A DNA stretch of 64,000 nucleotides from an uncultured Alphaproteobacteria bacterium (GCA_944392315.1 CALXWH010000003.1:22909-86908); one strand, 5' to 3'. Numbered from the stretch's first letter, positions 14,797 to 55,419 are shown. Numbers and translations are program-made. The notes: generated from the sequence alone by a model not told the origin.

Positions 14797-15057
14797 TCAT
14801 CTCGGGGCCAATGTACCTTCCAGTTCTTTTATCAGATTTTTGCCGTTTAATAACCGTGCAAAGTACCTGATTTCAATCAAAGACAGTCTATCTGACCATT
14901 TGAAAAAATGTCTTGGCTCTTTTATCACATACCTACTTCGGATTTTTTTACGAAGTTCATGTCTTTCTTTTTTGATAAAATGAGTTAACCACTGGGTGCT
15001 GCAAATTACGATTGCGACACCGCACATGACTACGATAATCGTTATTACTTTTTCCAT
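14797..15057 (-). CDS. Small hypothetical membrane-anchored protein (solo gene)
   Basis: N-terminal hydrophobic helix, basic tail; own TTGACA-17-TAATAT promoter and a terminator at ~14757-14793. Confidence 0.55.
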   Translation of the reverse strand: MEKVITIIVVMCGVAIVICSTQWLTHFIKKERHELRKKIRSRYVIKEPRHFFKWSDRLSLIEIRYFARLLNGKNLIKELEGTLAPR

Positions 15058-15297
15058 AGCACAATAATTTTAAAATTATAAAAACACGTCGGCGATATTA
15101 TGGTGTTTCTTTTTTTATGTCAATATTTTTTCTTCTGTCTTATTCGCTTTTTCATCTGTCTCTATTCTTATTTTTTATTTCAAGTATTTATTTTTGGTTA
15201 CACCGCTTATAGACAAAAAGTTCTTGCAAAAATATTTTTTTGTGTTATATACCTATGGTGATATTTTAAGTCTATGTTTATTTTTAAAACTATTTCT

Positions 15298-15714
15298 ATG
15301 AACAAGAAAAAATTTAGAGGACAGAACGGCCAAGCTGTTTCCCCTCGCAAAAGACAGCAAAAAACTGCTACAGTGATTAACCGCCCCTCATCACCTTACA
15401 TTGTTTTGCAATGCCTGGCGGATATCTATAATTTAGATAGAAATCTGCTTTCGTTTGCCATTGCAGAAACTTCTGATGATGACGGCTCCTTTGTTCCTGA
15501 ACCGGTGGTGCTTATCGCTCACTCTGATAAGTACATTGATTTGAAACACGGTATTATCCAGCAAAACGCTCATGCGCGTAACGCCAAGCAAAACTTTTTT
15601 GCGGCAGTCGTCAAATTTGAAGACGGCGATTTTGTTTTTTCCGCACCTCGCGTTGAAGCCAAAATCAACAAAAACGTTTTGATTAAACACTACGGCACGG
15701 CTATTGTCGGATGA
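15298..15714 (+). CDS. Hypothetical protein, basic N-terminus (solo gene)
   Basis: ORF with TTGCAA...TATAT promoter upstream and a terminator at 15741-15773. Confidence 0.6.
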   Translation: MNKKKFRGQNGQAVSPRKRQQKTATVINRPSSPYIVLQCLADIYNLDRNLLSFAIAETSDDDGSFVPEPVVLIAHSDKYIDLKHGIIQQNAHARNAKQNFFAAVVKFEDGDFVFSAPRVEAKINKNVLIKHYGTAIVG

Positions 15715-15740
15715 TAATCAGTTCTTCGTTCTTGAAAACA

Positions 15741-15773
15741 AAAACACCGCTTCCTTATGGATAGCGGTGTTTT
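15741..15773. terminator. Bidirectional terminator
   Basis: AAAACACCGCT...AGCGGTGTTTT. Confidence 0.75.
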
Positions 15774-15793
15774 CTTTTGTGGACTTTTGAGGG

Positions 15794-16360
15794 TTAAAAG
15801 CCCTGTATCGGATACGGACTGAATTTTACATACGTTGCATGGTCATGCAAGCCCGTATAGTGATACATGGCTTCTTTTTGTATCCCTTCCAAAGTATAGC
15901 CTGCGCGCAATGCGACGTGTGCCGAATTGATGTTATTCACATCACAACATATGGTTACGCGGTGCATTCCTTCTTCAAAAAGCTCTTTTTCCACCGCTAA
16001 TACGGCCTCGGTCATATAACCTTTTTTAGTTTCTGACTTGCGCAGCCAATAGCCCAGTTCTGCGGATTGATTCATGAATTGAATGTTGTGGACACCTATG
16101 CTACCGAGTAATTTATTTTCATCTCGGCTGTAAATGTCGTAGCACCACTCATCATCATCATCCCATTTTTTGAAGAACATATCCGTTGATTTTATCACGT
16201 CTTTTAATGATTGAGTTTTATCTACCCAAAACAGATATTCTCGGATAAAATCCCGGCTTTCTTCAATCGCTTCCCACATTTCGGCGTCATGTTCGTGTTG
16301 GCGCTTCAATATCAACAATCGCTTACTGACGATTGTTTCTTTTAACTTAAACTTTTCCAT
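15794..16360 (-). CDS. RimJ/RimL-type GNAT N-acetyltransferase
   Basis: AELGYWL, KGYMTEAV, NINSAHVALRAGYTLEG. Confidence 0.85.
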   Translation of the reverse strand: MEKFKLKETIVSKRLLILKRQHEHDAEMWEAIEESRDFIREYLFWVDKTQSLKDVIKSTDMFFKKWDDDDEWCYDIYSRDENKLLGSIGVHNIQFMNQSAELGYWLRKSETKKGYMTEAVLAVEKELFEEGMHRVTICCDVNNINSAHVALRAGYTLEGIQKEAMYHYTGLHDHATYVKFSPYPIQGF

Positions 16361-16463
16361 CTGAACTCCTGTTTTAAATTAATAATATTTTATATGTTTA
16401 TTTTTTTTTGACAAGAAAAAATCCTCACTCCGTGTAACACGAAATGAGGATTATTTTTTTATT

Positions 16464-17249
16464 TTAAGCTTCTTCTGCAGCATGCGTCTCTTCTACCAGC
16501 GCACGCCGACGAGCGTAAAATTCTTGCTGAGCCTTTGAGCGCAATCCATACTTTTCAAAGTACTTTTCGGCTAACTCAAAATGATTTTTCACCAACATTT
16601 GTTGCGATAAATCGGATATCAGTTCATTTGCTTTTATCCTTAGTGCAACCATACTTGCCGGTGCTTTTTCCAGCAGTGTTTCTTCTTGTTCTTTAGATAA
16701 TTTCACTTTTTGGATGAGGTAACGAACAGCAAAACTATCCGTTGATTGTTCCAAGAGGAAATTTAACAAGTCATCCGTCATAATGTCTCTGGCGTTATTG
16801 TCTATATACGCCTTGAACAATTCTATGCCTACGGTCTTGTTTGATTTGACCATCCCTTGTATGTAGCCATATTCGGGGATACGCTTAAACCGCCGAGCAC
16901 TTTCGTAGTAGCCGTTCGGCGACAGATAACTTTCAAGAAATAAAACATCGTTTTTAGATACCATCAGGTTCTGCTGTTCCTCATTTAAGATGTTATTTCT
17001 CAATATGCTCTGAACCAATTTCATCGTATTCAACTCTTGTTCGTCACCAAAATATTCCAATATGTTGGTTATTTGGTATGACGACAGTTGATTATACTTG
17101 ATATACTCCATCAGGAGTGGGATCTTTTTTTCACGGATTAAATAATCCACGATTTCATCGTTCAACCTATGCTTTCGCACGTACCGTACGAACAGCCCAA
17201 ACCCCATGAATCTGACAAGGAGTTTTTGGAAAAATTTATTCAGTTCCAT
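16464..17249 (-). CDS. Hypothetical helical-repeat protein (solo gene)
   Basis: Repeated LSxxxQxxL units; TTGACA-16-TATTAT promoter; terminator ~16415-16460. Confidence 0.65.
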   Translation of the reverse strand: MELNKFFQKLLVRFMGFGLFVRYVRKHRLNDEIVDYLIREKKIPLLMEYIKYNQLSSYQITNILEYFGDEQELNTMKLVQSILRNNILNEEQQNLMVSKNDVLFLESYLSPNGYYESARRFKRIPEYGYIQGMVKSNKTVGIELFKAYIDNNARDIMTDDLLNFLLEQSTDSFAVRYLIQKVKLSKEQEETLLEKAPASMVALRIKANELISDLSQQMLVKNHFELAEKYFEKYGLRSKAQQEFYARRRALVEETHAAEEA

Positions 17250-17412
17250 AATATTATAAGAATAAAAGTTAGACATAATTTTATAAAATTCTGTCATATA
17301 ATAGCTTTTTTTATATATTTGTCAAGCATTTTCGTTCGGCGCTTTCTTATATCAACTTTTTAGATAGCAAAATCCCGTCTAAACCTTATGGTCTAAACGG
17401 GATTCTTTTACT

Positions 17413-18828
17413 TTAGAAAAAGACGATTTTACCTTCTTTTAGCAGTTCCATACGCTTTTGCAGCACTCTCTTTTGAGAATCTGAAAGCACTGACATCTCC
17501 TGTTTGAGCAGTTTGGCGCCAATGGCTTGTGTTTCCGGCGTGGCGTAATTATCCAAATACTCTTTGAGCGTTAACAAAGCATTTGGCGTGCAGAATTTAT
17601 GAATTTGCTGCTTTTTGCAAATGGCCATAAAATCTTCACCGACACGACCGTTGCCATAGCACGATGTGCAGAAACTCGGCACATGATGTTGCTCCATTAA
17701 CCAACGTACAACTTCATCCAAACTTCGGTTATCCGAAATTTCAAACTGCGAGCTATCCGGCTCTTCTTCATGAGAGGCATATCCGCCAACACTTGTTTTT
17801 GAGCCTCCGCTGATTTGCGATATTCCCAACCTCAGCGCTTTCTCCCTTATCCGCTTGCCTTCTCGGGTGGAAATTATTAACCCCGTATATGGCACAGAAA
17901 TGCGAAGTAAGGCGATGATCTTTAAGAATATTTCATCCGGAAGAGCATTTTCAAAATCTGTCGTTTTGATGTCATCTGCCGGACATAATCGCGGAACGCT
18001 TATCGTATGCGGCCCTGCCCCATACTTGGCTTCCAAATGTTCGGCGTGCATCAGTAAACTGACAAATTCTGAAGCATAATTATGCAACCCGAACAAAACG
18101 CCCAATCCGACATCTTCTATGCCTGCTTGCATGGCTCTATCCATGGCTTCCGTATGCCACTCGTAATTTGCTTTCGGGCCGCGCGGATGAAGCCGCTCAT
18201 AATCCTCTTTGTTATATGTTTCTTGAAACAAAATGTAGGTTCCGATTTTGGCTTCGTGCAGACGGCGATAGTTTTCTACCGTGGTTGCCGCTATGTTCAC
18301 ATTCACTCGCCTGATGGCGCCTGATTTGTGTTTGATGCCATAAATCGTATCTATACTCTCAAGAATATACTCCAGAGGATTCATAACCGGATGTTCTCCG
18401 GCCTCTAACGCTAAGCGCTTATGCCCCATATCCTGCAAAGCTATCACTTCCGCTTTTATCTCTTCTTGAGTCATTTTTTTGCGGAAAATGTGTTGGTTTT
18501 GAGAATGATATGGGCAATACGTACAACCGTTCACGCAATAATTGCTCACATAAAGCGGCGCAAACAGAACAATGCGATTGCCATAATAGGCTTCTTTTAT
18601 CTGCTCGGCTAGTTGGAAAATTTGATGATTGATATCTTCATTTTCACATAGGAGCAATACAGCAGCTTCAACATGGGTTAGCCCATGCTTGGCGCGGGCT
18701 TTATCCAAAATGTAGTTGAGCATAAACGGATCTTTACAATACTTTTTGGCGTAACTCAGCGCGAAGCTGACTTCCTGCGGATTGATAAAACTTTGCGCTT
18801 TATCTGACATTAAATCATACTTTTCCAT
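17413..18828 (-). CDS. hydG: [FeFe]-hydrogenase H-cluster radical SAM maturase HydG
   Basis: CVNGCTYC radical SAM motif, LFQETY, GPHTISVPR, C-terminal CxxC-x22-C (CTSC...FC). Confidence 0.9.
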   Translation of the reverse strand: MEKYDLMSDKAQSFINPQEVSFALSYAKKYCKDPFMLNYILDKARAKHGLTHVEAAVLLLCENEDINHQIFQLAEQIKEAYYGNRIVLFAPLYVSNYCVNGCTYCPYHSQNQHIFRKKMTQEEIKAEVIALQDMGHKRLALEAGEHPVMNPLEYILESIDTIYGIKHKSGAIRRVNVNIAATTVENYRRLHEAKIGTYILFQETYNKEDYERLHPRGPKANYEWHTEAMDRAMQAGIEDVGLGVLFGLHNYASEFVSLLMHAEHLEAKYGAGPHTISVPRLCPADDIKTTDFENALPDEIFLKIIALLRISVPYTGLIISTREGKRIREKALRLGISQISGGSKTSVGGYASHEEEPDSSQFEISDNRSLDEVVRWLMEQHHVPSFCTSCYGNGRVGEDFMAICKKQQIHKFCTPNALLTLKEYLDNYATPETQAIGAKLLKQEMSVLSDSQKRVLQKRMELLKEGKIVFF

Positions 18829-18905
18829 ACATATCTATATTTAAATGATTAATTTTAGAATTTTGATGTATGACTTTTTTTGATTTTTGTCAATACGGCA
18901 TCTAT

Positions 18906-18939
18906 AAAAAAAGCGCAGAATCCACTCTACGCTTTTTTT
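18906..18939 (-). terminator. Terminator after elbB
   Basis: AAAAAAAGCG...CGCTTTTTTT. Confidence 0.65.
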
Positions 18940-18961
18940 CTTTTTCTGATACTAAGAGGCT

Positions 18962-19627
18962 TTATTGAGCTAACTCTAACATAGCCTTTATCAAAGATTT
19001 TGCTCCTTTGTTTACCTCTGTAATATTACTTGCCAACATATAAGCCGGTGTGGTTACGATGCGATTTTTAACATCAACACACGCATCTTCCACTTTGGTG
19101 TCTTGCTGATGGGCTCCGGTTGCCTCTATGGACTTTGCGACTGTTTTATCGTTCCCTATTGTGACGGTAATACCATATTTCCCCAAAACTTTGGCCACAA
19201 TTACGGGCGCAATGCACATCGCACCGATGACTTTCTTTTGCTTATAGGCTTCTTCCAAAATGCGACTGATTGAATTTTCTACCCGACAGTCTATCCCGGC
19301 TTTGGCAAAATCACACCAGTTTGTTACGGCACCCAGGCCTCCCGGCAATAAAATTGCATCGTACGCACTTAAATCTAATTCGCTGATATCTTTTATATCG
19401 CCTCTGGCCAAACGGGCGGATTCTACCAATACATTACGGCGCTCTGAGGTCTTTTCCGATGTTAAACCGTTTATCACAACAGCTTGCTCAATATTCGGCG
19501 CATAACAATCATAGGTGCAACCTGCATCCGAGATGGCTAGCATGGCGGTCACCGTTTCATGAATTTCTGATCCGTCGGCACGGCCGCATCCGGATAATAT
19601 CATTGCAAATCTTGGCATCTTCTTCAT
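18962..19627 (-). CDS. elbB: DJ-1/PfpI family glyoxalase ElbB
   Basis: LSGCGRADGSEIHE, RNVLVESARLARG, PGGLGA, CIAP, TTPAYM. Confidence 0.9.
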   Translation of the reverse strand: MKKMPRFAMILSGCGRADGSEIHETVTAMLAISDAGCTYDCYAPNIEQAVVINGLTSEKTSERRNVLVESARLARGDIKDISELDLSAYDAILLPGGLGAVTNWCDFAKAGIDCRVENSISRILEEAYKQKKVIGAMCIAPVIVAKVLGKYGITVTIGNDKTVAKSIEATGAHQQDTKVEDACVDVKNRIVTTPAYMLASNITEVNKGAKSLIKAMLELAQ

Positions 19628-19790
19628 TTTTACTCTCCTTTGGTTCGTTTTGTTTCTTTCTTATACATAATACAAAATTAAAAAAAATTTAAGTGTTTTG
19701 GTTTATCTATTCTATTGATTTATTTTTAAGCGTGATTATACTGTTTGAACTTAAGTATCTGTTGTAATTTTTTTTGTGAAGTTTTGGGTT

Positions 19791-21053
19791 ATGGAAATTA
19801 AACAAACGACTTTATCTAACGGTTTAAAAGTTATTACCGCGGAAAGACCACAAATTGAAACTGTTTCTTTGGGTGTCTGGGTGAATACCGGGGCTGCTGC
19901 CGAATCGGAACAGGATAACGGGATTTCCCATTTTATTGAGCATATGGTTTTTAAGGGAACAAAAAAGAGAACTTCTTTGCAGATTTCCGAGGATATTGAA
20001 AATGTCGGCGGCGCTACAAACGCTTATACATCCAGACATTTTACCTGCTTTTATGCCAAAATGCTCAAAGATGACTTGGAATTAGCGGCGGATGTTATTT
20101 GTGATTTTATCACGGATCCGACGTTTGATGCCGGTGAAATGAAAAAAGAAAAAGAAGTCGTTGTGCAGGAAATTAAGCAATCTGTTGATGCTCCTGATGA
20201 CCTTGTATTTGATTATTTCCAAGAAGCTGCTTTTCCGCATCAGGCTTCGGGACGGACTATTTTGGGCAGTGTTGAAAATGTCAGAAGTTTTACAAAAGAA
20301 CGGATGCTTGCTTATATGCATACACATTATACGGCTGATAATATGGTTGCTGTTGCCGTGGGACGCGTTAATCATGATGACTTTGTGAAAATGATTGAAC
20401 AGCGTATGAGTGCGTTACCGCAGCATGTTGACTTTGTTGAAGATAAGCAAGTTTATGTCGGCGGTGGACGGGTGGAATGTAAAGATATTGAACAAACCCA
20501 TTTGGTTCTTGGCTTTAAGGGTGCTTCTTATATGGATAAAGATTACTATAACTATTCTGTTTTATCCACTATTTTCGGCGGAGGAATGTCCTCAAGATTG
20601 TTCCAAGAAATTCGCGAAAAACGTGGTTTGGTCTATACAATCAACAGCTTTAATCAGGCTTTGAAACACGCCGGTATTTTTGGTATCTATGCCGGAACGA
20701 CGCCTAAAGAATTAGATGAATTGTTGCCGGTGGTTGTTACCGAAATTAAAAAGCTAATGAATGAAAAAGTTTCGGAGACGGAGCTTAAAAGAGCTAAAAC
20801 ACAGATTAAGGCCAGCCTTTTGATGTCTTTGGAAAGTTCTTCTACCACAGCTGAAATTATCGCAAGACAAATGTTGCTCTTTAAACGCGTTATTCCGACT
20901 TCGGAAATTGTGGAGAAAATTGAGGCTATTTCCGCTCAAGACTTGCAAACCTTAGCGCAAAAGATTTTTACTTCCACGCCTACTTATGCTTTGCTTGGTT
21001 GTCAGGGTGGAAATTATCCTTCTTATGAAAAGGTTTGTGAGCTTTTGAAATAA
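19791..21053 (+). CDS. M16 family zinc peptidase (MPP-like)
   Basis: HFIEHMVFKGT, NAYTS, GGGMSSRLFQEIREKRGLVY. Confidence 0.92.
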   Translation: MEIKQTTLSNGLKVITAERPQIETVSLGVWVNTGAAAESEQDNGISHFIEHMVFKGTKKRTSLQISEDIENVGGATNAYTSRHFTCFYAKMLKDDLELAADVICDFITDPTFDAGEMKKEKEVVVQEIKQSVDAPDDLVFDYFQEAAFPHQASGRTILGSVENVRSFTKERMLAYMHTHYTADNMVAVAVGRVNHDDFVKMIEQRMSALPQHVDFVEDKQVYVGGGRVECKDIEQTHLVLGFKGASYMDKDYYNYSVLSTIFGGGMSSRLFQEIREKRGLVYTINSFNQALKHAGIFGIYAGTTPKELDELLPVVVTEIKKLMNEKVSETELKRAKTQIKASLLMSLESSSTTAEIIARQMLLFKRVIPTSEIVEKIEAISAQDLQTLAQKIFTSTPTYALLGCQGGNYPSYEKVCELLK

Positions 21054-21080
21054 TAAGGTAATTTACTGTTTTTTTAGTTA

Positions 21081-21112
21081 AAGAAAAGATGGAGGAATCC
21101 ATCTTTTCTTTT
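21081..21112. terminator. Bidirectional terminator
   Basis: AAGAAAAGATGGA-GGAA-TCCATCTTTTCTT. Confidence 0.75.
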
Positions 21113-21129
21113 TGCTTTTAAATGATTTT

Positions 21130-22713: not shown

Positions 22714-22726
22714 TTCCGCGCCTCTC

Positions 22727-23896: not shown

Positions 23897-23905
23897 GTTT
23901 GCCTC

Positions 23906-31921: not shown

Positions 31922-32026
31922 GCTCCTACGTTATTTATTTTCGTAATTCTTATTGACTTTACTTTCTAATATAACTACATTCGCTCGTAGAGTTTTTTAT
32001 TATTTTATGTTTAAATTTTTATCATT

Positions 32027-32695
32027 ATGAATGTTAAAGAATTATTGGGAGTAACGGATCTTCCGGCAGATGTTAAAATGCTGTATAGAGGTCTTATTAA
32101 AAAGAAAATTAACCTCAAAAACGGTTGGGTGGCCATTGTACTCAAAAACAATTTGGCTGTCTTTCTTAAAGACGGAGTTCAGATGATGTCTTTCGGAGCT
32201 GTTTGCGCAATTTTTAGTGCCGATGACGGAAAGTTTATGGTTATCAAAGAAAATAAGGAAAAAGCTATTTGGGATAAGGATGGGCTATGTTTAGCGCCTT
32301 TTTCCAAGGAAACAGAACTTTATCGTAACGGTTGGTACAGAAAAGAAAGTCATGGTGAATTGGCTTTGTTTGATGACCAAAATAACTGTCTGGGGCAACA
32401 CCTTAGAGAAACAAAAGTTTTTCGTAACGGTTCTTATTTTATGTCAGTCATAGACGCCAAAGACGGAGGCTTGGCCGGTGTTTATAACAAGCAAAGAGAA
32501 AAATTGCTTTTTACAAATACGAGGCGTATTTATATGCTGAACAACGGATGGTTTATTGCTGATGGCTGGTTGCACGATAACTTGGGTGAACCTTATATTC
32601 AGTATGGTCATCCTTACAAGCTCTCTCTTTTCTTGCTTATTTGCTTGGGCTCGCTGATGCCGTTCAGAAAACAGTGTTTGCCTAAAGCAAGTTGA
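32027..32695 (+). CDS. Hypothetical beta-repeat protein (solo gene)
   Basis: Repeated NG-aromatic units (LKNGWV, YRNGWY, FRNGSY, LNNGWF); own promoter and terminator 32722-32750. Confidence 0.6.
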   Translation: MNVKELLGVTDLPADVKMLYRGLIKKKINLKNGWVAIVLKNNLAVFLKDGVQMMSFGAVCAIFSADDGKFMVIKENKEKAIWDKDGLCLAPFSKETELYRNGWYRKESHGELALFDDQNNCLGQHLRETKVFRNGSYFMSVIDAKDGGLAGVYNKQREKLLFTNTRRIYMLNNGWFIADGWLHDNLGEPYIQYGHPYKLSLFLLICLGSLMPFRKQCLPKAS

Positions 32696-44013: not shown

Positions 44014-44041
44014 TTGACAAAAAAATATTTTGGCCTATGCT
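44014..44041 (+). promoter_or_regulatory. Sigma70-type promoter of solo gene
   Basis: TTGACA-16-TATGCT. Confidence 0.65.
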
Positions 44042-44073
44042 TGTTTTTGTACTTTTATTAAAAACATATATTT

Positions 44074-44760
44074 ATGGACGAAAAAATTGTAAAGACCGTT
44101 ATGTGGTCTGATGCTAAGGTGCTTTTATCAGCCCTTGCCAGTAAAAATTTAGGTAGAGCCAATAATAAAAAGCCTGCCGATTTTTGTGAGTTTGTTGTTT
44201 CTTATCCGACGGTTACCAGAAGGCGGATGGTTGAGTTTCTGGAAAATGTTGTCTTAAACAATCAACTCAGTGATGTTACTTCTATGGCAACCACAGCCGA
44301 AGACAGTTGTTTGTTTTCCGCTGAACACGCAACAGCCATTGAAGTTATGCTCAGACACCTGAATAAACTTAACACCGGTGGAAAATTACAGTCTCTCTGG
44401 GCTTTTTTGGACGATGATAAAAAAGCTATTATCCATTTCATCAATAAAGGGGGATGGTATGCGGAGGCTTTTTTCTGCAGTCCGGAAGAGTTTTCGGTCG
44501 TTCACTTGATGACGTCATCTCGGGGAGAAAAATTTTTTATCCCGGTGGCCTTCGTCAGGGATTTAAGCAAATTGGCAGCTAAAGTCAGTTTGACCGGAAA
44601 TTTCTGTTTGCAAGATTATTTGCCGCGGACTAAATTTGATTTTCTTTCTAAAGGAGGGAAAAAAGGTAAATCCGAAAAAAACGGTAAAAACGGCAAACAG
44701 CATACTGAGAAAAAAGAAAATCCTCATCGTCAATTTCGTGATGGCTGGGATGGACTTTGA
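44074..44760 (+). CDS. Hypothetical protein with Lys/Gly-rich C-terminal tail (solo gene)
   Basis: 228-aa ORF with own promoter and a structured 3' region. Confidence 0.65.
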   Translation: MDEKIVKTVMWSDAKVLLSALASKNLGRANNKKPADFCEFVVSYPTVTRRRMVEFLENVVLNNQLSDVTSMATTAEDSCLFSAEHATAIEVMLRHLNKLNTGGKLQSLWAFLDDDKKAIIHFINKGGWYAEAFFCSPEEFSVVHLMTSSRGEKFFIPVAFVRDLSKLAAKVSLTGNFCLQDYLPRTKFDFLSKGGKKGKSEKNGKNGKQHTEKKENPHRQFRDGWDGL

Positions 44761-44956: not shown

Positions 44957-45778
44957 TTAAAGCCAAAAGCATGGAATAACTTTTATATCCCTGTCAATGT
45001 ACACAGAACCTTGAAAGCAACCTCCGTCTTTTTGCATACATATACCTTCCAGAGAGCGGCCGTTCCAATGTGACATGGGAAATGTCCCTACTCCGTACCA
45101 TAGACCTAAAAGCGGAGTAACCATCTCATTTGCAGATCTAGCCGCTTTCATCTCTGCCGATGATATCATAAAGCAATCATTCGGATTAAGACCATTTTTA
45201 GCATAATTGGTAATATACTCCCAAACTTCTGTCTTTATTCCTTTTAACCGAAACGCTTTATATATTGCTTGGGTATTCGCATAGCCGTCAGGAAAAACCT
45301 CAATAGCATCCGGAAGATGTTTATCCAAACTTAAATAAATGAGTTTCATTTCCACAAAATCTGGGACACAACACAAAGCCCGATAACCTATCGGTGCGTT
45401 TTTATCCGGATTTACCCACAAAATATATCCGCTTAATTCTGCTGTAGAAAAACCATTGCGTATGCATATCCCTCCGTTATTATAAACTTTTCCGCCACAT
45501 TCGGCTTTTGCTATTTGTTCCGGCATTACCTTCTTTGCCAGCTCAATAATCGGTGCGGATGATTGCGGCATTTTAATCGGTTGGGGCTTTTTCACAGATG
45601 ATTCCGTCAATGATTTTTCTTGCAAGTTATCAGCCTCAAAGGGGTGCTTTACCGTTGCTATGGCATTTAAACTACCATTAACGAATTTACGCCCGTAGCT
45701 TCCATCTTTGAATAGATAAAACGGATAGCCGATTTCTTGTCCGATGGCATTTAATTGGCTTAAATTTAATTTTTCCAT
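44957..45778 (-). CDS. Hypothetical protein, weak DUF1566/C-type-lectin-like pattern (solo gene)
   Basis: GYILWVNPD, DGYANTQAI, terminal VIPCFWL; perfect TTGACA-16-TATAAT promoter. Confidence 0.55.
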   Translation of the reverse strand: MEKLNLSQLNAIGQEIGYPFYLFKDGSYGRKFVNGSLNAIATVKHPFEADNLQEKSLTESSVKKPQPIKMPQSSAPIIELAKKVMPEQIAKAECGGKVYNNGGICIRNGFSTAELSGYILWVNPDKNAPIGYRALCCVPDFVEMKLIYLSLDKHLPDAIEVFPDGYANTQAIYKAFRLKGIKTEVWEYITNYAKNGLNPNDCFMISSAEMKAARSANEMVTPLLGLWYGVGTFPMSHWNGRSLEGICMQKDGGCFQGSVYIDRDIKVIPCFWL

Positions 45779-45823
45779 AATTGTTGATTTTAATAGTTTT
45801 GATAATAATTTTCTTTGGGTGTG

Positions 45824-45851
45824 ATTATATGGGGTTATCCTCAATTGTCAA
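45824..45851 (-). promoter_or_regulatory. Consensus sigma70 promoter
   Basis: TTGACA(45851-45846)-16-TATAAT(45829-45824). Confidence 0.75.
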
Positions 45852-45945
45852 TCTCTTCTGCTTACCTTTTTTTGTGGGAAAAAGGGTTTTATGGTTGCAA
45901 GTTTTCTCTTTGCGTTTATGGTGTAAGAAATAAGGAGTTTTTCTG

Positions 45946-47205: not shown

Positions 47206-47935
47206 TGATATCAACGATAATGCTCCTATTTTACAACTGAGTGATGTTGTTAAAAATTATAAACAAGGAAAGCAAACGTTGGAGGTGCTTTCCGGTGTGG
47301 ATTTAACTATTCATAGCGGCGAAATTATTGCTTTGGTCGGACAAAGCGGTTCGGGTAAATCTACTTTGTTGCAAATTGCCGGTCTTTTAGATAGACCTTC
47401 TGGCGGACGGGTTTTTATTAACGGAGAAAATATCGGTAAAGTTTCTGATGACGTGCGCACATCGCTTCGGCGTGATTATATCGGTTTTGTTTATCAATAT
47501 CATAACCTTTTGGGGGACTTTTCTGCACTTGAAAACGTTATGATGCCGATGCTTATTGCCGGTAAATCTCCTAAAGATGCGGCTGACAGAGCAACGTTTT
47601 TGCTTGATAAATTAAAACTTTCTCATCGCTTAAAACATCGTCCGGCAGAGCTTTCGGGCGGTGAACAGCAACGTGTGGCTATTGCCAGAGCTTTGGCTAA
47701 TTCGCCAAAATTGCTCCTTGCCGATGAACCGACAGGTAACCTTGATCCGAATACCTCCGAAGAAGTTTTCTCGGCTCTGCTCAATATTATCAAAGAAACC
47801 GGATTAGCGGCTTTGATTGCGACGCACAATATGGAATTGGCTGCGCGGATGAATAAACAATTTAAGCTTAAAGACGGGGTTTTGGAAAATATGAATGAGC
47901 CGCTCTTTACAAAGGTTCGGAAAAATTTTTATTAG
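47198..47935 (+). CDS. lolD: Lipoprotein-releasing ABC ATPase LolD
   Basis: [39 protein letters not shown]. Confidence 0.92.
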
Positions 47936-48002
47936 CCTTTGCCTATTTCTTATTTCAACCGCCCTATCTCTAGAAATATCGCGCGTTTCTTTAAAAAAAT
48001 GC

Positions 48003-48201
48003 TTGCAAAATTATTTTTTTGCGATATGTTAGGGGCACTTCCGAGAAAGAGGACGGTGCTTTTTTGGAGATGTGAGGTGTGGGGATATATACCCTTTTCC
48101 TTTTGTTTCCTAAGCATAACGCCCCGTTTGCGCAGATATTTATCTCAACGACAAAACTATCGGGACAATAAATTAATTAACCGTTTAAAGGATTTTATTT
48201 A
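48003..48201 (+). promoter_or_regulatory. rpsD promoter and ~165-nt structured leader
   Basis: TTGCAA-16-TATGTT, then overlapping stems at 48035-48068. Confidence 0.5.
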
Positions 48202-48816
48202 ATGAAAAGTATTGTTAACGCAAAAAAGAAAAGTAGCCGTCGTTACGGTCAAAATCTTTGGGGTGATTCTAACAGCCCTATTTTGAAGAGAAATTATGCT
48301 CCGGGTCAACATGGTCAAAAGAGAAAAAAGACAACTGACTATGGTGAGCAATTATATGCTAAACAGAGATTAAAAGTTTACTATGGTAACATTTCTGAAA
48401 AGCAATTCCACAAATATTATGAAGAAGCTATTCGTAGAAGAGGCGACGCCGCTGAAAACCTTATCGGCTTGTTGGAATCTCGTTTGGATAACTTGGTTTA
48501 TAAAGCAAAATTTGCTTCTACCGTTTTTGCTGCTCGTCAGTTTGTTAACCACGGTCACATTACCGTTAATGGTAAGAAAGTTAACATCCCTTCTTATATG
48601 GTTAAAGCCGGTGATGTTATTGAAGTTCGTGAGAAATCTAAGCAATTAGCCGTTGTTTTGACTGCTATTCAATCTCAATCTCGTGACTTCCCTTCTTATT
48701 TGGAAGTTGATGCTTCTAAATTAACAGCTAAATATTCTTTTGTTCCGAAATTTGATGACGTTCCTTACGCTGCTCAAATGGAACCAAACTTGGTTATCGA
48801 GTTCTACTCCAGATAA
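48202..48816 (+). CDS. rpsD: 30S ribosomal protein S4
   Basis: [29 protein letters not shown]. Confidence 0.98.
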
Positions 48817-48865
48817 TAGCTGTTATATGGCGGTTTTCTTCTGGAGAATCGCAACAGAATATCAC

Positions 48866-48896
48866 AAAAAAGCAGAGTTTCGGCTCTGCTTTTTTT
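48866..48896 (+). terminator. rpsD terminator
   Basis: AAAAAAGCAGAGT-TTCG-GCTCTGCTTTTTT. Confidence 0.8.
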
Positions 48897-49041
48897 GTAA
48901 CAAGAGCGCTATTGGCTAGGCCGGTGGGGCTCTTTTTTTGCTTTTCTGCCTCTGTCATGCCCTTTCTATTGACAAAAAAATATTTTCCATTATCCTTTTG
49001 GCAATTAAATATTATTATTCACTTTTTTAAATTATCAACTT

Positions 49042-50109
49042 ATGGAAAATTATTTTAAATCTGCTGAACAAACACAAAGTGTGTTGGAAGCGCTGAAATG
49101 TTATTGGGACTTTTTTGGTGAAAGAAGCATTGATGAAGAAGATGATGATTTGACATTTTTTTCAAATGGTTTCTTTAGCCTTGTTAATCCCCAAAACTAT
49201 CATCGGCAAATCTATGACAATCGTTGCCAGTTGTTTGCACCTGAGGTCATTGATTTTCATGTTTTTGAAAATGGATACTATGCTCTCTCTGTGGTTAAAA
49301 ATAATTCTTATCAATTTTTTAATCCTCAGGGGGAAAGTATTGCCTGCTTTGATGATGTTATCTTTTGCGGGCAATATCGGCATTTTGTCGTCAAAAAAGA
49401 TGATAAACTCTATGTCTTGTCGGTGGATGATTTATCTCAAAGCCACGTTATCGGCTCTGCTCATGACATCGCCGATTTTTGGGATGCCGATGATGGGAAA
49501 ATGGCCATTGAGAGAGATAATCAAATTATCTTGTATGACAAAGATTTCTGTGTCATACATCTTTTGCAGGATATAGTGGACGTTTCTTTCTTCACCGGAG
49601 GAAATTTTATCACTTGGACAAAGAAAAAGGGGGTTCTCTTTGATACAAACTTAGTTCCCCTATTGGATGATCTGGATGTTAATTATCATTGGGCGACGCT
49701 TAAAAATATGTGTCGGAATATGGATGCGACATACGATTGTCTGACGGCAAAACCTATTGCCAAATATTACACTCTTACCGGAGTTCCTAATTGCGCATAT
49801 TACATATCCGGTACAGGTAATGTTTGTTTGCGCTTAGGCAACGGGGAGCAAATTGAATTTCAAGAAACCGATCGTTCATTCATTATTGCCAAGCAATTCG
49901 TCGGTATCATCCGTCAAAATCGTTTGGTGATTCTGGCTCTTGAGATTCCACTGCAGCAGCAAAGGATGCTTTTTGATACCTTTATTCGAGAAGTCTCCGG
50001 AGAGGATATTTCTGAAGCCTTGTTTGACTATGGGCAGAAATTTGTGGCGTTTGCTCAAGGTGCCAGATTGAATAAGCGTGAAACTTTGCGCTATTTATTA
50101 TCGCACTAA
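49042..50109 (+). CDS. Hypothetical beta-repeat/propeller-like protein (solo gene)
   Basis: FSNGFF and FENGYY repeats; TTGACA-16-TATCCT promoter; terminator 50134-50160. Confidence 0.65.
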   Translation: MENYFKSAEQTQSVLEALKCYWDFFGERSIDEEDDDLTFFSNGFFSLVNPQNYHRQIYDNRCQLFAPEVIDFHVFENGYYALSVVKNNSYQFFNPQGESIACFDDVIFCGQYRHFVVKKDDKLYVLSVDDLSQSHVIGSAHDIADFWDADDGKMAIERDNQIILYDKDFCVIHLLQDIVDVSFFTGGNFITWTKKKGVLFDTNLVPLLDDLDVNYHWATLKNMCRNMDATYDCLTAKPIAKYYTLTGVPNCAYYISGTGNVCLRLGNGEQIEFQETDRSFIIAKQFVGIIRQNRLVILALEIPLQQQRMLFDTFIREVSGEDISEALFDYGQKFVAFAQGARLNKRETLRYLLSH

Positions 50110-50133
50110 CCGCTGTTTTTATCTCTTTTATTA

Positions 50134-50160
50134 CAGCCCTCTTCGGAGGGCTTTTTTTTA
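50134..50160 (+). terminator. Intrinsic terminator
   Basis: AGCCCTC-TTCG-GAGGGCTTTTTT. Confidence 0.8.
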
Positions 50161-50239
50161 TTTTTCTTTTTATCCCCTCTTTACTCTTTATTCTTCTTGG
50201 GTTATAATTAAATTAGGAATAACAGCTTATAGGTATTTT

Positions 50240-51133
50240 ATGTTTATTTTATTTATTGCTTTACTTGCTCCGCTATTCACTTCTTTTGCTAATATCATTG
50301 AGTGCAAACTTTCTAATAATAATTTTAAGCACCCTCTCACGATGATTTTTTACATTTCTTTGATGAACTGCGTCTTTTTGCCGCTGTTGCTCTTTTTTGG
50401 TATGCCGACGTTGCCGACGCTTAGTGTCTTGCCTTTTTATCTTGTCTTAGCCGTTATTGATGTTGTTTATCTCTATCCTTATTACAAAGCTATGAAGGTT
50501 ATTGACACCTCTATCGTATCTGCTCTATTCTCTTTGGGGCAAATCACTATCCCGATTATGACGTATCTCTTTTTGGATGAACACCTCAAACAATCGCAAT
50601 ATTTTGGTTTTGTCATTATCATTCTTGCCTCTATTGTTTTGAGCATCAACGACTTTAAAATGCCTAAACTTAATCGCGCCTTTTACTATATGGTCTTTGT
50701 TTCGTTTTTGAGAGCGTTTTATGTGGTTATTCAAAAATGTGCTTTTCAGTATGATGACAGTTGGATCAATATGATGATTTACGTCAATACACTTTCCGGC
50801 CTTTTACCCTTTTTACTCTTTTTCCATAAGCCTTCAGCAGAACGTATCAAAAAAGCTTTTAACTCTTATCGCAAACGAACCAAAATTTTTTGCTTAAATG
50901 AACTTCTTTGCTTTTTAGGTGGAGCGGCTTTTATTTTTGCATTATCTCATATGTCTGCCGTGACACTTTCTGCAATCAACGCTACGGCGCCAATCTTTAT
51001 GCTCTTTATCAGCATTACCTTAAAAAAGATTTTTGACATTAGAGTCAAAGAAACCATCTCTCCACGCATTATGGTGAAAAAGATGGTCTGCTTTGTCGTT
51101 ATCGTTATTGGCGTTGTTTTAGTCGCTTTATAA
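50240..51133 (+). CDS. EamA/DMT family transporter
   Basis: About 10 TM helices in two repeats, YLFLDEHL motif. Confidence 0.8.
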   Translation: MFILFIALLAPLFTSFANIIECKLSNNNFKHPLTMIFYISLMNCVFLPLLLFFGMPTLPTLSVLPFYLVLAVIDVVYLYPYYKAMKVIDTSIVSALFSLGQITIPIMTYLFLDEHLKQSQYFGFVIIILASIVLSINDFKMPKLNRAFYYMVFVSFLRAFYVVIQKCAFQYDDSWINMMIYVNTLSGLLPFLLFFHKPSAERIKKAFNSYRKRTKIFCLNELLCFLGGAAFIFALSHMSAVTLSAINATAPIFMLFISITLKKIFDIRVKETISPRIMVKKMVCFVVIVIGVVLVAL

Positions 51134-52085
51134 TTTTTACAACTCTTTTGACTGCTTTTGTATATTTCATCGTCATTTGAGGATGGGCTTGTTTATACAT
51201 CTTTGCTTTTTGAGCAATGTAATCATACAAATGCTGCATTTTTTTATTTCCTTTAGCAGCCAAATCTTCAGGATGGCCTTGAACGCATAAAATCCCTGCG
51301 GCTTCATTACCCCATATTTCCGGTATACCGTCCGAATCTGATACGGCATATAGGTCCATTTTAACTAGCGGCGTGCCTTCCACATAATCTTGCAAAGCCG
51401 GATGAACCATGGCCTGGTTGTGACGCGAATTTATCATAATCTTATCTTCATTCGCATCTAACCCCATAATATCAAATATCGGTGTTCCTTTGATTAACTT
51501 CAATCCATGAATACGTACGTCGGTTTCAGCTTTTGGCTTATGAACTGTCTTTTTTGACACTTCTTTTTCTAAGCTACGGTACATTTTCATATTCCCCAAT
51601 AGAGCCCCTATCATCTGCGCACCGGCACAAATACCCAGCATCGGTTTATGATGACGGTAGGCTTCGGTTATCGCTGCTTTATATGCAAAAAAGCGTTTGC
51701 CTTCTTTACCCCCCATATCTTTTCCGTCTATGAAGAAATCTTCCGGATTATCAAAGGCTCCTCCCGGCAAAATGACGCCATCGCAATCTTTCATCTGTTG
51801 ATAGGTGTTTTCATAATCCAAAAACTTTATTTCCGCACCTGTTGACAACGCCGCTTGCGCATAGGTCAATCCGATGGTGTAATATTCTTCGCCATTATCG
51901 CCTTTATCTTGCCCCAATAAAAATCCTACTGTCGGGCGGTTTGAACTTTTATCTTCATATAACTCTTTATGAAAGCGAATATCGGCCGCGATACCTTGTG
52001 CCTTTAATTCTTCTATCTCTTTTTTGGGAATGCCGAAACTCTTAAACTCTTCCAAATACTCCAGATATATTTTTTTAGTTTTCAT
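51105..52085 (-). CDS. Peptidase C26 / gamma-glutamyl-GABA hydrolase family glutamine amidotransferase
   Basis: DGVILPGG, LGICAGAQ, NSRHNQA, VQGHPE. Confidence 0.85.
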   Translation of the reverse strand: MKTKKIYLEYLEEFKSFGIPKKEIEELKAQGIAADIRFHKELYEDKSSNRPTVGFLLGQDKGDNGEEYYTIGLTYAQAALSTGAEIKFLDYENTYQQMKDCDGVILPGGAFDNPEDFFIDGKDMGGKEGKRFFAYKAAITEAYRHHKPMLGICAGAQMIGALLGNMKMYRSLEKEVSKKTVHKPKAETDVRIHGLKLIKGTPIFDIMGLDANEDKIMINSRHNQAMVHPALQDYVEGTPLVKMDLYAVSDSDGIPEIWGNEAAGILCVQGHPEDLAAKGNKKMQHLYDYIAQKAKMYKQAHPQMTMKYTKAVKRVVKIIKRLKQRQ

Positions 52086-52179
52086 CGTAAAAAACTCCTT
52101 TTTTGCATATACCTAAGTGTACCCGAAAATTGAGAGTCTGTCAATCGGGTTATTTATTCAGTTTTTAGGCGCTGGCTTT

Positions 52180-52890
52180 TTATATTTCCAGATATTTCAA
52201 AACATCATCCGGACTATTAACCGGTACAACTTCCGTATTTTCCATACCGCGCAGAGCTTCTGCCAATGCATAGTCATTACCCCCCTTTTCCGTGCGGTCT
52301 CCTAAGAAAATTATTTTATAATTTGGGTGCATCTCTCTTACTTTATGCGCGATTTGCTCTTTGCTGCAGCCTTTGGTCACAATATCTATGGATATCTTGC
52401 CGCCGACGCTCGCTTCATATTCCGGAAAATTCTCATTCACATCTTGGACAATGGTTTCACGTTCGTGATGTACATTATCCCATTCATTATATTTGGCGCG
52501 CTCCGAAAATGGACAATTTCTTCCTAACACGCTGAAATTCAGCATTCCGGGGCGCAACTCCATGTAATTTCCAAAAAGTTGTCCTTCGTATTCCGTATTG
52601 CGACGATAACGCTCCAACGTTTGCAATAACTCTTTCTTTAATTTAATTTCGTGACGATAAATTTCTTTGCCTTTTTGATGAAATACATTGCCCATGGAGC
52701 TATAAATGCCGCTAAATGACAGCATCGCTTCGGATGGAATCTGTTCACATACTTTTTCATAGTTTGAACCTGCAGCTAAATAAGCTAAATGAGATTTTAA
52801 CCAAGGGATAAATCTGCGACTGAAATCAGGCGTCATCTGTTGGCGGGCCGGCGTTATCGTTCCATCCATATCAAATATATATATTTTCAT
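52180..52890 (-). CDS. HAD-IIB eukaryote-type phosphomannomutase
   Basis: FDMDGTITPARQ, ELRPGMLNFSVLGR, GGKISIDI, GDRTEKGGNDY. Confidence 0.85.
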   Translation of the reverse strand: MKIYIFDMDGTITPARQQMTPDFSRRFIPWLKSHLAYLAAGSNYEKVCEQIPSEAMLSFSGIYSSMGNVFHQKGKEIYRHEIKLKKELLQTLERYRRNTEYEGQLFGNYMELRPGMLNFSVLGRNCPFSERAKYNEWDNVHHERETIVQDVNENFPEYEASVGGKISIDIVTKGCSKEQIAHKVREMHPNYKIIFLGDRTEKGGNDYALAEALRGMENTEVVPVNSPDDVLKYLEI

Positions 52891-52969
52891 AGCGTCTCCT
52901 TTCTTATAAGTGCGCCTGCAGAGACCAACTTACGGAAATATTCCTTATTTTATTTCCTTTTCATCTCAA

Positions 52970-53284
52970 CTATTTGTCTGCGACGCATTTATAATAAGCT
53001 TTGGAGGGTACAAAAAGTCTGCACGTAAAAATATCATTATCTATTTCTTCCGCATGCGTCTTTTCCTTGTGCGCTCGGCATAGTTCATCTGCTTTGGCCT
53101 TTACTTCTTCTTTATCATAAAATAAAGGATTGTAACAGATGGCCGGACGACCGGGTTTTGAACTGCCGACATATACATATTCTGTTCCGGGCTCTCGTCT
53201 TCGGTCCTCAAAAGGGGCAAATTGCGAGCACGCACTCAGCAGGCAAAACACAGATAGTAACAATGATAATTTTAGTGTGGACAA
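52970..53284 (-). CDS. Small Cys-containing lipoprotein
   Basis: Lipobox LSAC, four further Cys. Confidence 0.7.
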   Translation of the reverse strand: MSTLKLSLLLSVFCLLSACSQFAPFEDRRREPGTEYVYVGSSKPGRPAICYNPLFYDKEEVKAKADELCRAHKEKTHAEEIDNDIFTCRLFVPSKAYYKCVADK

Positions 53285-53342
53285 TTTGTAAAACTCCCGT
53301 TAAATTGTGTATGTTAGTCATTATATATAAAGATGAATTAAA

Positions 53343-53954
53343 ATGCAAAGCGAAAATGTATATATTGGGGATGATAAATTTGAACGCTTCCTCGCTCATT
53401 ATAATTGTCCGACACCTGTTGATGTTGCGAAACTGAAATTTGCCGGTGCTATTTGCAGCCCTAACCCTAATTTGAGACCAACGGATGTTATTGCTTCTTT
53501 CTTTCCGGATAATGCTCAACCACGTTTGACGACGAAGGCTGAAGCCGAATTGTTCTTTAAGTTTTTTATGGGATTGTGGGATCAGATGTTTGTTGAAATT
53601 AAAACCAATTCTTTGGAATTGCCCGAATTTCACGGTGATATTCATGATACACAAAGTCTTATTGAATTATGCTATAATCGGGCGGATCAAATTGAATGCG
53701 GTTTTGTGGAAGGTTTTTGGGGCGGTTGCGAAACGCTTAATATCCCTAATTTTGCGGCAGAGTTAATCTCTTCTCTTTCTGATATGGCCGGTGTTTATGC
53801 CATGCTCGCTAAAAAACTTTCTCAATCTGAAAATCCCGATGATATTTATCCGGTTATTCTTAATACCGATAAAATGGTGCTCAAAACCTTGCATTTCCTT
53901 ATTGAACATTTGGTCTTGCCACATATTGAGAAACTACAAAGAAGTGTTAACTAA
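53343..53954 (+). CDS. Hypothetical protein, UPF0149/YecA-like
   Basis: GAICSP...P, GFVEGF pattern. Confidence 0.5.
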   Translation: MQSENVYIGDDKFERFLAHYNCPTPVDVAKLKFAGAICSPNPNLRPTDVIASFFPDNAQPRLTTKAEAELFFKFFMGLWDQMFVEIKTNSLELPEFHGDIHDTQSLIELCYNRADQIECGFVEGFWGGCETLNIPNFAAELISSLSDMAGVYAMLAKKLSQSENPDDIYPVILNTDKMVLKTLHFLIEHLVLPHIEKLQRSVN

Positions 53955-53980
53955 TCTGCCTTTTTACAGGAGTTTTTACT

Positions 53981-54511
53981 ATGGAATTATATGAAGGACT
54001 TTTAACCAGACGCTCCATCAGAAAATATGATCCAGAAAAAAAATTATCTGATGAGCAAATTATTGAACTTTTGCGGGCGGCGAGCTATGCCCCTTCCGCG
54101 CACAACAAGCAGCCTTGGCATTTTTTGGTGCTCAAAGATGCTGAAACCTTGCGCACACTTAGAACCGTTCAACCGTGGACTTCTTTTGCTAAAGATGCCG
54201 CTTGCGTTGTTATTGTTTGTGCTGATGAATTGGAAACTTTCCACCGTGAAAAAGAAGGTTGGAACTATGCGCAAATTGATGGTTCGTTGGCGGCAGAAAA
54301 TCTTTTGCTTGCTTGCCATGCCAAAGGGCTTGGTGCTTGTTTCTGCGGTGCGGCTCCGATGCCAATGGTCGTTGACAACCTGCGCAAAAAATTTAATATG
54401 CCCGAAACTATACTCCCTATTGCTATTATTACAATCGGGTATCCACTGGAAACACCTAAGCAACCTGAAGATAGGTTTAATCCTGAGAAAGTACATTGGG
54501 AAACTTTTTAA
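53981..54511 (+). CDS. Nitroreductase family protein
   Basis: RRSIRKY, APSAHNKQPWHF, ENLLLACHAKGLG, IGYP. Confidence 0.92.
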   Translation: MELYEGLLTRRSIRKYDPEKKLSDEQIIELLRAASYAPSAHNKQPWHFLVLKDAETLRTLRTVQPWTSFAKDAACVVIVCADELETFHREKEGWNYAQIDGSLAAENLLLACHAKGLGACFCGAAPMPMVVDNLRKKFNMPETILPIAIITIGYPLETPKQPEDRFNPEKVHWETF

Positions 54512-54576
54512 TCATTTTTTTCAACAAAATAGCCTCGCAGAATATTCTGTGAGGCTTTGTTTTTCTCTGTTACAGT

Positions 54577-55326
54577 TTACATGGCTGCATAGCGTTCAAA
54601 ATAGGCTTTCACCTCTTCGCGATTGCCTCGTTCCAACAGTTCATCTTCTACTTCAAGTCCTTTGGTTGAGTCTTGAATGTAATCCATGATTGCTTTGTGG
54701 TTACCGCTCTTGATTAACAAACGCTGCGCTTCTGGGCACAATGCCTTGTACTTAAAAATATATCCTCTGACGCATTGCTCACACTTGTCTATTAAACTAT
54801 CTTTACCGTAACCGATGTTCAGATAGCTCATCAACTCCTTTTCGCCAAACGGGGAAAGAGGATTTGAGGCCAAATAGTTTTCAACATCTTCAAGATAGGC
54901 CAATGTATGCCTATCTTGACTTTTCGCAAGACTTTGTTGGAGCAAGTAGACTTCGGCTTGCGGAGAAAATTTCTTTTGCACCCTTAAAGCGCTCAGACCT
55001 TTATTGATTATTTCTTTTTCAAGTTCTAGGCACCAATGCCCATTTTCTAACATCTGTTCACAAATCACATCGTTTGAACCGGCGTGTTTATAAATATACA
55101 ACTGCACTTCATGGCTTAACGGATAACTTTCCCCAAAAACTTCCAACATCTTGGTAATTTCTGTTTTATTACCTCTCTTGACAATTGCCATTTGTTCTTC
55201 ATCGGTCAGAACTTCTTCTGTGCGATGCTGTGCAATTTTTGCCATGATTTCACGATGTTTTCGTCTTTCTTCCTCTGCAGCTTCACGCATACGGCTGATT
55301 TCTGCAACACTGATTTTTTCTTCCAT
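54577..55326 (-). CDS. Hypothetical helical-repeat protein (solo gene)
   Basis: Repeated L(S/C)xxxQxxL..GN units; own TTGACA promoter and terminator 54527-54560. Confidence 0.65.
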   Translation of the reverse strand: MEEKISVAEISRMREAAEEERRKHREIMAKIAQHRTEEVLTDEEQMAIVKRGNKTEITKMLEVFGESYPLSHEVQLYIYKHAGSNDVICEQMLENGHWCLELEKEIINKGLSALRVQKKFSPQAEVYLLQQSLAKSQDRHTLAYLEDVENYLASNPLSPFGEKELMSYLNIGYGKDSLIDKCEQCVRGYIFKYKALCPEAQRLLIKSGNHKAIMDYIQDSTKGLEVEDELLERGNREEVKAYFERYAAM

Positions 55327-55419
55327 AATTTTACAATTTAATTGGTTTGACATATCTATACTTTATCACGATTTGATGTATTCCTGTTTCGGCTTCTTGT
55401 CAATCTATTTTCTTGTTAC

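Follow-up and report, generated by a model that had tools for sequence, protein, structure and literature searches.

The genome of an uncultured Alphaproteobacteria bacterium (G000) contains a distinct class of genes, about 7-8% of the total, whose start regions lack a Shine-Dalgarno (SD) motif and resemble those of Bacteroidota. Nine of these genes lie in the window analysed here, a stretch of 64,000 nucleotides that forms part of contig C3 (GCA_944392315.1 CALXWH010000003.1:22909-86908). The SD-less class is real, old and selected, and two of its lipoprotein genes recur in Bacteroidaceae, where the copies are interleaved with those of the genus. The preferred explanation, held tentatively and at a little under an even chance, is that a leader compatible with two kinds of ribosome, and likely read through ribosomal protein bS1, marks accessory genes of a bacterium that lives close to Bacteroidales. 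G000 comprises 1.56 Mb (96.7% complete, contamination 0.3%), its AtpA is ~69% identical to rhizobial AtpA, and its close relatives are gut-metagenome genomes labelled uncultured Alphaproteobacteria or Rickettsiales; the lineage may belong to the RF32 group. Genus comparisons drew on 36 genomes and the Bacteroidaceae survey on 401. No 16S, rplL or rpoB was found in the G000 assembly, which is attributed to an assembly gap because relatives carry them. Literature searches found no paper on this SD-less gene class or on the lifestyle of the lineage; the accessible text of PMC12306168 concerns another order, and that of PMC10783764 has no bearing on this gene class.

The start regions of the 1448 genes delivered by a self-trained gene caller were modelled by expectation-maximization (EM) with three classes, the third seeded only on the absence of an SD motif and few G; a two-class model was dropped as it divided starts on strand composition only. 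The posterior is bimodal, with 122 of the 1448 starts assigned to the SD-less class above 0.5, 102 above 0.95 and 1287 below 0.01, and the two SD classes take 92% of the weight and the SD-less class 8%, with almost no intermediates. One gene of intermediate posterior (0.79) is rpsD (window 48202-48816), which has a weak SD. Anti-SD energies above -0.5 kcal/mol account for 80% of the class weight and for 4% in the SD classes. Nearly all class genes are monocistronic (98% of 92, versus 42% of 918 SD genes), and a terminator follows 80 of 90 class genes and 35 of 90 SD genes. Their promoters are of the σ70 type and share the consensus of the SD genes, though stronger, with TTGAC upstream of 50 of 93 class genes and of 82 of 459 first-in-unit SD genes. 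The Bacteroidota box TAnnTTTG is present in 7/93 and 65/459, respectively, so the class does not have Bacteroidota-type promoters. The distance from the end of the -10 box to the ATG is narrow (41-47 nt, interquartile), which, with transcription starts predicted from these boxes, is not the arrangement of leaderless mRNAs, and 50 of 93 leaders hold an upstream ATG within 40 nt, in mixed frames.

The class is also sorted by gene type. The earlier note had proposed scoring SD motifs genome-wide against ORFan status, and the association proved strong: 84 of 99 class genes (cut-off E<=1e-3) have no Pfam family, compared with 19 of 100 SD controls (E<=1e-5; 100 genes out of 140 picked at random among the 334 SD genes of the loci retrieved; Fisher p=9e-22). 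Among the 15 class genes with a family, several look like wrong starts or low-posterior calls, while the core gene plsX, which has a class-like start that is kept in G020, looks genuine. A Ser-Cys lipobox is found in 5 of 8 class lipoproteins, 3 of 30 SD lipoproteins and 6 of 16 lipoproteins in Bacteroidales loci. Only 1 of 88 proteins tested matches a PHROG and the flanks in the window are core genes, a pattern unlike that of phage morons. Three tandem class genes at G000:C8:3062-6088 encode predicted outer-membrane beta-barrels, and a relative of these is inserted elsewhere in G021 (L159:17594-18223). The proposal of the earlier note that a second class of genes initiates translation in its own way is supported, and these genes combine their start signal with a promoter of host type and a terminator.

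The nine window genes, named here by their start positions, display the layout from which that proposal arose (Table 1). In all nine, a -35 box (7 TTGACA, 1 TTGCAA, 1 TTGACT) begins 60-77 nt 5′ of the start and is followed by a spacer of 16-18 nt and a TAnnnT-like -10 box, the upstream anti-SD duplex energy is 0, T stands at -1, and a hairpin with a T-run lies 3′ of the gene; six open with ATG-GAA. The leaders had been described as AT-only with a TTAAA motif; the motif stands, beginning at -14 to -16 in eight of nine (the exception is 17249), whereas each leader holds 1-3 G/C within its last 20 nt. Promoters and terminators vary in sequence from gene to gene. Eight of the nine had been called ORFans, and these do lack Pfam, PHROG and NCBIfam matches, the ninth being HydG, the only one with a known function. 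All eight have orthologues in the genus, and five of them fall into two G000 paralogue families (19 and 8 members), so they are not strict ORFans. The EM model recovered six of the nine: 15057 was not called, 17249 was given another start and 15298 was placed outside the class.

The SD-less class characterizes the genus and turns over slowly by gain, loss and duplication; it does not represent a recent invasion, as seen from the synteny of the window genes, the retention of their leaders and dN/dS values indicative of purifying selection. In the regions retrieved from seven relatives, window genes occupy the same sites with the leader retained. Synteny reaches relatives whose AtpH is only 47-50% identical; gene 32027 is found in the priA/atpH interval of relatives down to ~50% AtpH identity, and 44074 and 55326 persist with class leaders in G007 and G008 at protein identities of 25-30% and 31-33%, respectively. 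The site of 32027 is empty in G007 (L022), 45778 is missing at its site in G015 and G020, and 15057 has orthologues of 46-52% identity in G018, G021 and G009 and none at that site in G015; an extra outer-membrane gene in G021 adds to a record of gains, losses and tandem duplications. dN/dS is 0.05-0.27 for eight window genes (no value was obtained for 15057), compared with 0.03-0.18 for controls with usable dS. Class starts number 5 of 64 in the sampled stretches of G008, 4/55 in G007, 3/41 in G020, 3/67 in G015, 0/65 in G022 and 0/54 in G014, the last two of which carry class leaders on other genes; a sampled stretch from another family gave 1 doubtful class start of 82.

The earlier note had envisaged a spread of single-gene cassettes by capture or duplication, had named ancestral synteny as the observation that would speak against it, and had suggested a comparison of filled and empty sites. 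Site-specific gains and losses do occur; most sites are ancestral, and at genus level the genes are syntenic, under purifying selection and equipped with the same leader, so that recent mobility is not supported. No capture machinery was seen, in that G000 has no reverse transcriptase (Pfam RVT_1) and the 65 window proteins scanned include no integrase, a scan that was not extended genome-wide. A plasmid search gave no match, and searches for a phage source gave none except one matching a basic tail only; a DUF1523 gene matches phages of many hosts at <60%. As a separate observation, phage-like genes are inserted in G005 (C3:28870-39685, L155) beside the tRNA downstream of the poly(A) polymerase gene, and the tRNA at window 60680-60753 matches the one at that insertion site.

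The gene for the [FeFe]-hydrogenase maturase HydG bears on which ribosome reads the leader. It is present in single copy in 28 of the 36 genus genomes, and its promoter-leader is SD-less in 25 of these 28, down to 65-70% protein identity; in the other three, the leader is ambiguous (G007) or SD-like (G246), or the gene was acquired separately and carries an SD (G014). The hydA, hydE and hydF genes of G000 belong to the SD class. Because HydG is needed where HydA matures, the bacterium's own ribosomes most likely read the hydG leader. Inspection of the translation apparatus, as proposed in the earlier note, showed a canonical anti-SD in all three full genus 16S genes found and single genes for bS21 and for a bS1 of six domains, with no second copy of either. 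With 92% of genes in the SD classes, a ribosome that is blind to SD motifs genome-wide is not indicated. An apparently long hydG branch vanished with genus sampling. An SD-less A/T-rich start is likewise found on an alphaproteobacterial hydG whose product falls outside the class clade (L146). Two genomes titled Muribaculaceae (L083, L124) have their HydG among Melainabacteria, and these titles look wrong; the one examined, G043, uses SD motifs and was dropped as a Bacteroidota reference.

The class start matrix has A at 54-79% at -14 to -11, 53% at -6 and 44% at -3, U at -16/-15, -9 to -7 and -2/-1, and GA or AA after the ATG. In Flavobacterium johnsoniae, according to the accessible part of PMC6847099, A at -14 to -11 is characteristic of Bacteroidetes, translation is raised by A at -12, -13, -6 and -3, and contact with bS1 is offered as a hypothesis; A-3 and A-6 are active in E. 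coli as well. Profile correlation with the class is 0.56 for Paraprevotella (70 starts) and 0.59 for crAss001 (45 starts), as opposed to 0.01 for the SD class of G000 itself, in keeping with the likeness to Bacteroidota suspected from the window alone. Though the likeness is real, the references are less U-rich and less uniform than the class. Patescibacteria were considered as a general donor and rejected: low-SD metagenome loci (108 self-chosen starts of unconfirmed taxonomy) gave only r=0.27, and a 76-protein tree of the class gene C20:17277 left the clade of G000 unresolved.

Several class genes outside the window link the lineage to Bacteroidaceae and their phylum. One of them, C8:24352 (G000:C8:24352-24558; L048:301-507), encodes 68 aa, the first 35 of which match the Bacteroidota ribosomal protein L7/L12; the product joins the L12 N-terminal domain to a basic tail, lacks the C-terminal domain that binds factors, and scores 98-127 against six Bacteroidota L12s versus 53-62 against the genus's own. 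The G008 copy has a match in 70 of 151 Bacteroidota genomes (up to 74%), 9 of 36 genus genomes keep the gene at one site, flanked by rarA and a pseudouridine-synthase-like gene, and a PDB search with the L12 fragment gave no match. The product is a candidate ribosome stalk binder.

Two lipoprotein genes provide the evidence of exchange. C26:1073 has a match in 24 of 36 genus genomes (~17 strong), with class-type leaders and synteny within subclades, and relatives in 10 of 401 Bacteroidaceae genomes (9 substantial) as well as in Phocaeicola coprophilus. The Bacteroidaceae contigs reach 207 kb, and housekeeping genes near the lipoprotein are 22-53% identical to those of G000 (one 72%). In a quick, unrooted tree, built without G748 and G841 (a long branch and a fragment) and without nine unlabelled proteins, the Bacteroidaceae copies occupy five separate positions within the genus, and their monophyly is rejected (approximately unbiased test, p-AU 2.6e-50). 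Since five transfers out compare with many more in, transfer out of the genus is the simpler reading, and the tree points to a likely transfer to Bacteroidaceae at five places. C7:50106, also in 24 of 36 genus genomes, has four Bacteroidaceae copies at two places of a likewise quick and unrooted tree (p-AU 0.003), and the two lipoproteins share the same donor clades for the same recipients and follow genus AtpA distances (Mantel rho 0.66 with 10 genomes, 0.75 with 15). A control gene of the SD class, the only one used, was found in 0 of 401 Bacteroidaceae genomes. The copy in G246 is 87.9% identical at the nucleotide level to that in Bacteroidaceae G954 over 1893 nt, and 118 of the final 120 coding nt of G954 are identical; the signal peptides and promoters are not alike, and the flanking SD genes differ. 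In G834, homology continues beyond the stop codon and breaks off within the 3′ arm of the donor terminator stem, abutting a palindromic repeat, an end seen in one of three compared copies. The copies fixed in Bacteroidaceae carry TAnnTTTG-like promoters of Bacteroidales type.

Two further features of the lipoproteins were observed. The leader of C26:1073 is longer, with a ATTATGATTTTTATAATT-like box ~100-130 nt upstream that is conserved in most of the genus copies examined (G000:C26:~945-965; L115-type leaders, L359-L372). The two genes are unlinked in the genus genomes examined and adjacent in Bacteroidaceae G834, G951, G759 and G954 (L418, L420, L375, L419), which involve two donor clades.

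Taken together, the copies of the lipoproteins in Bacteroidaceae suggest close, likely parasitic, contact between the two groups. Under the preferred explanation, the class genes would be old, genus-inherited stand-alone units, each with a σ70-type promoter, a terminator and a conserved SD-free start of Bacteroidota type. The bacterium's own ribosomes would likely read the leader through bS1 contacting the A-run at -14 to -11, the same leader would likely be readable in Bacteroidales cells, and class genes would be exchanged with Bacteroidales through contact that is probably parasitic or predatory, part of the class possibly being of Bacteroidota origin. The presence of a VirB type IV secretion cluster, described below, is in favour of this explanation. 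A number of results weigh against it. The match of the start profile is moderate overall, with r=0.29 for Bacteroides heparinolyticus (41 starts) and 0.10 for Lak phage (24 starts), and among Paraprevotella and crAss starts only ~30% prefer the class model. In the HydG tree the class clade is neighbour to Melainabacteria, which use SD, rather than to Bacteroidales, so that hydG likely received its leader once acquired or else in an intermediate that was not sampled. For C20:17277, the outside homologues with a name come from Patescibacteria (3), and the copies seen there have SD motifs; the leader would therefore not simply have come along with each gene from Bacteroidota. Searches for Bacteroidota homologues of the eight family-less window genes found none, the alpha-repeat search returned 22 unnamed matches, and the beta-repeat profile found nothing in five chosen Bacteroidaceae genomes. 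The class outer-membrane family is absent from 201 Bacteroidales genomes, lipoprotein C21:15111 from the five genomes searched and C26:1073 from 201 genomes of a phylum-wide draw.

An alternative is a purely internal translational regulon, in which an A/U-rich leader of bS1 type would set the translation of accessory genes and of hydG apart from that of SD genes, by condition or by ribosome state, the likeness to Bacteroidota would be convergent, and the Bacteroidaceae copies would reflect ordinary gut transfer filtered for genes that a Bacteroidota ribosome can start. The presence of the leader on hydG, which comes from an SD-using donor group, and on plsX, the activity of A-3 and A-6 in E. 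coli reported in the accessible part of PMC6847099, and the narrow leader length all fit such a regulon, which is nonetheless unlikely: it leaves the Bacteroidota-type L12 fragment, the Ser-Cys lipobox bias and at least five separate transfers of one gene unaccounted for, and no second bS21 or bS1 was found. Less probable again is that a parasite or predator of Bacteroidales keeps ~100 single-gene units written for the host ribosome and delivers them as nucleic acid, either as mRNA or as DNA transcribed by the parasite polymerase, via a type IV system or a phage-like particle, with rare delivered copies becoming fixed in Bacteroidaceae genomes. The combination of a donor-type promoter with a Bacteroidota-type start, the single gene and terminator of each unit, the TAnnTTTG-like promoters gained by the fixed copies and the end of G834 homology within a terminator stem would agree with delivery of this kind, as would a truncated Bacteroidota L12, which could act only on a matching ribosome. 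A possible route exists in a chromosomal VirB type IV secretion cluster (G000:C10:505-18841, L435) that encodes a VirB2-like pilin, VirB4, VirB9 with a SPOR domain, two VirB8 and five products without a VirB family match, one of 1800 aa, in an arrangement that presumably resembles Rickettsiales systems. A relaxase was not found in this 96.7% complete genome by a search confined to the family PF03432. Against delivery, a cell that holds hydA, hydE and hydF would lack HydG, the terminator boundary is confined to the one copy beside a palindromic repeat, the near-identical end of G954 is a recent mosaic that points to DNA recombination, and G000 has no reverse transcriptase. Bacteria are not known to have an mRNA export system, and a literature search found none.

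The similarity of leaders on unrelated genes, the tandem paralogues and the site-specific gains and losses could also stem from a mobile promoter-leader-terminator cassette that captures or copies genes to new sites; this is improbable to a greater degree, given that most sites are ancestral in the genus, promoter and terminator sequences differ between genes, and reverse transcriptase is lacking. An artefact, be it from AT-rich DNA between genes, misplaced starts or contamination with Bacteroidota contigs, can be set aside as highly implausible. Some of the 122 calls are indeed wrong starts or core genes, such as an internal start in an rmlB-like gene, but class genes have alphaproteobacterial core genes on either side, on 22 of 27 contigs and at 0.3% contamination, their codon usage correlates with that of SD genes at r=0.98, leaders remain G-poor even in the 48% GC relative G015, and an artefact is already refuted by synteny and dN/dS far below 1.

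Table 1. SD-less genes of the window with their promoter-leader regions
Positions	Strand	Feature	Remarks
14797..15057	-	86-aa gene, hydrophobic N-terminal stretch, no family, SD-less start	
15058..15123	-	Promoter (TTGACA) and SD-less leader of 15057	
15224..15297	+	Promoter (TTGCAA) and SD-less leader of 15298	
15298..15714	+	138-aa genus-restricted gene	dN/dS 0.07; syntenic in G018, G021, G009, G015
16464..17249	-	261-aa alpha-helical repeat protein, 19-member paralogue family	dN/dS 0.05-0.08
17250..17325	-	Promoter (TTGACA) and SD-less leader of 17249	
17413..18828	-	hydG, [FeFe]-hydrogenase maturase, single copy	TIGR03955, 778 bits, cut-off 312
18829..18893	-	Promoter (TTGACA) and genus-conserved SD-less leader of hydG	
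31953..32026	+	Promoter (TTGACT) and SD-less leader of 32027	
32027..32695	+	222-aa beta-repeat protein, priA/atpH interval	8-member family; dN/dS 0.23-0.25
44014..44073	+	Promoter (TTGACA) and SD-less leader of 44074	
44074..44760	+	228-aa genus-wide gene, function not known	7/7 relatives examined; dN/dS 0.13-0.16
44957..45778	-	273-aa 'GYPF' subfamily member (8 paralogues)	dN/dS 0.12-0.27
45779..45851	-	Promoter (TTGACA) and SD-less leader of 45778	
48969..49041	+	Promoter (TTGACA) and SD-less leader of 49042	
49042..50109	+	355-aa beta-repeat protein, same family as 32027	dN/dS 0.15-0.19
54577..55326	-	249-aa alpha-helical repeat protein	dN/dS 0.13-0.19
55327..55403	-	Promoter (TTGACA) and SD-less leader of 55326	

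Distant relatives of 32027 bear WG repeats. The structure model of 55326 is an alpha-solenoid with an unspecific best match (Z 7.7), and that of 49042 is of low quality (pLDDT 46). Two RNA libraries (X1, X2) were rejected as evidence of expression, as they offer only short, near-identical contigs inside 44074 and 45778 at a depth of 2-3, for which a DNA origin is possible. Elsewhere in the window, a P-loop gene of the Zeta-toxin family (893-1555) lies directly behind ackA and is kept in G021.

Even on a cautious reading, this genome holds two cleanly separated initiation codes that are sorted by gene type and conserved across the genus, which makes it a natural test bed for the roles of the A-run and bS1. 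The leader tags ~100 genes of no known function per genome as a candidate set for host interaction, and the class genes recurring in Bacteroidaceae name a likely partner of a widespread uncultured gut lineage, hinting at a route to culture. If the messages did target host ribosomes, this would constitute a new mode of bacterial interaction, the delivery of messages from bacterium to bacterium.

Among known systems, the T-DNA and VirB-D4 machinery of Agrobacterium offers a parallel in that genes with the expression signals of another organism occur in the same genome as a VirB system. T-DNA genes come with promoters of the recipient, with borders and with a relaxase, whereas the class genes are dispersed under donor promoters, with no PF03432 relaxase found. 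Integron cassettes and phage morons are likewise single self-contained genes, the latter with their own promoter and terminator; the class differs in lying outside prophages and arrays, with no integrase in the window scan and at mostly ancestral sites that do not indicate the recent mobility of integron cassettes. The epsilon element of T7 gene 10 is an example of a bS1-dependent A/U-rich enhancer. Such enhancers of Proteobacteria, as treated for E. coli in the accessible part of PMC6847099, share with the class an A/U-rich unstructured leader and an SD-competent ribosome, while here the leaders define a discrete, position-fixed class on monocistronic, lineage-specific genes and are conserved genus-wide. 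The SD-free initiation of Bacteroidota, in the same part of PMC6847099, is similar in its lack of an SD, its A at -14 to -11, -6 and -3 and the proposed bS1 contact. It differs from the present case, in which ~8% of the genes of an SD-using alphaproteobacterium with a canonical anti-SD and a single bS21 are involved, the start regions are U-richer (-16/-15, -9 to -7, -2/-1) and the promoters are of the σ70 type with TTGACA instead of TAnnTTTG. SD-free initiation as such is already known, and the noteworthy part is its sorting by gene type together with the gene flow to Bacteroidaceae.

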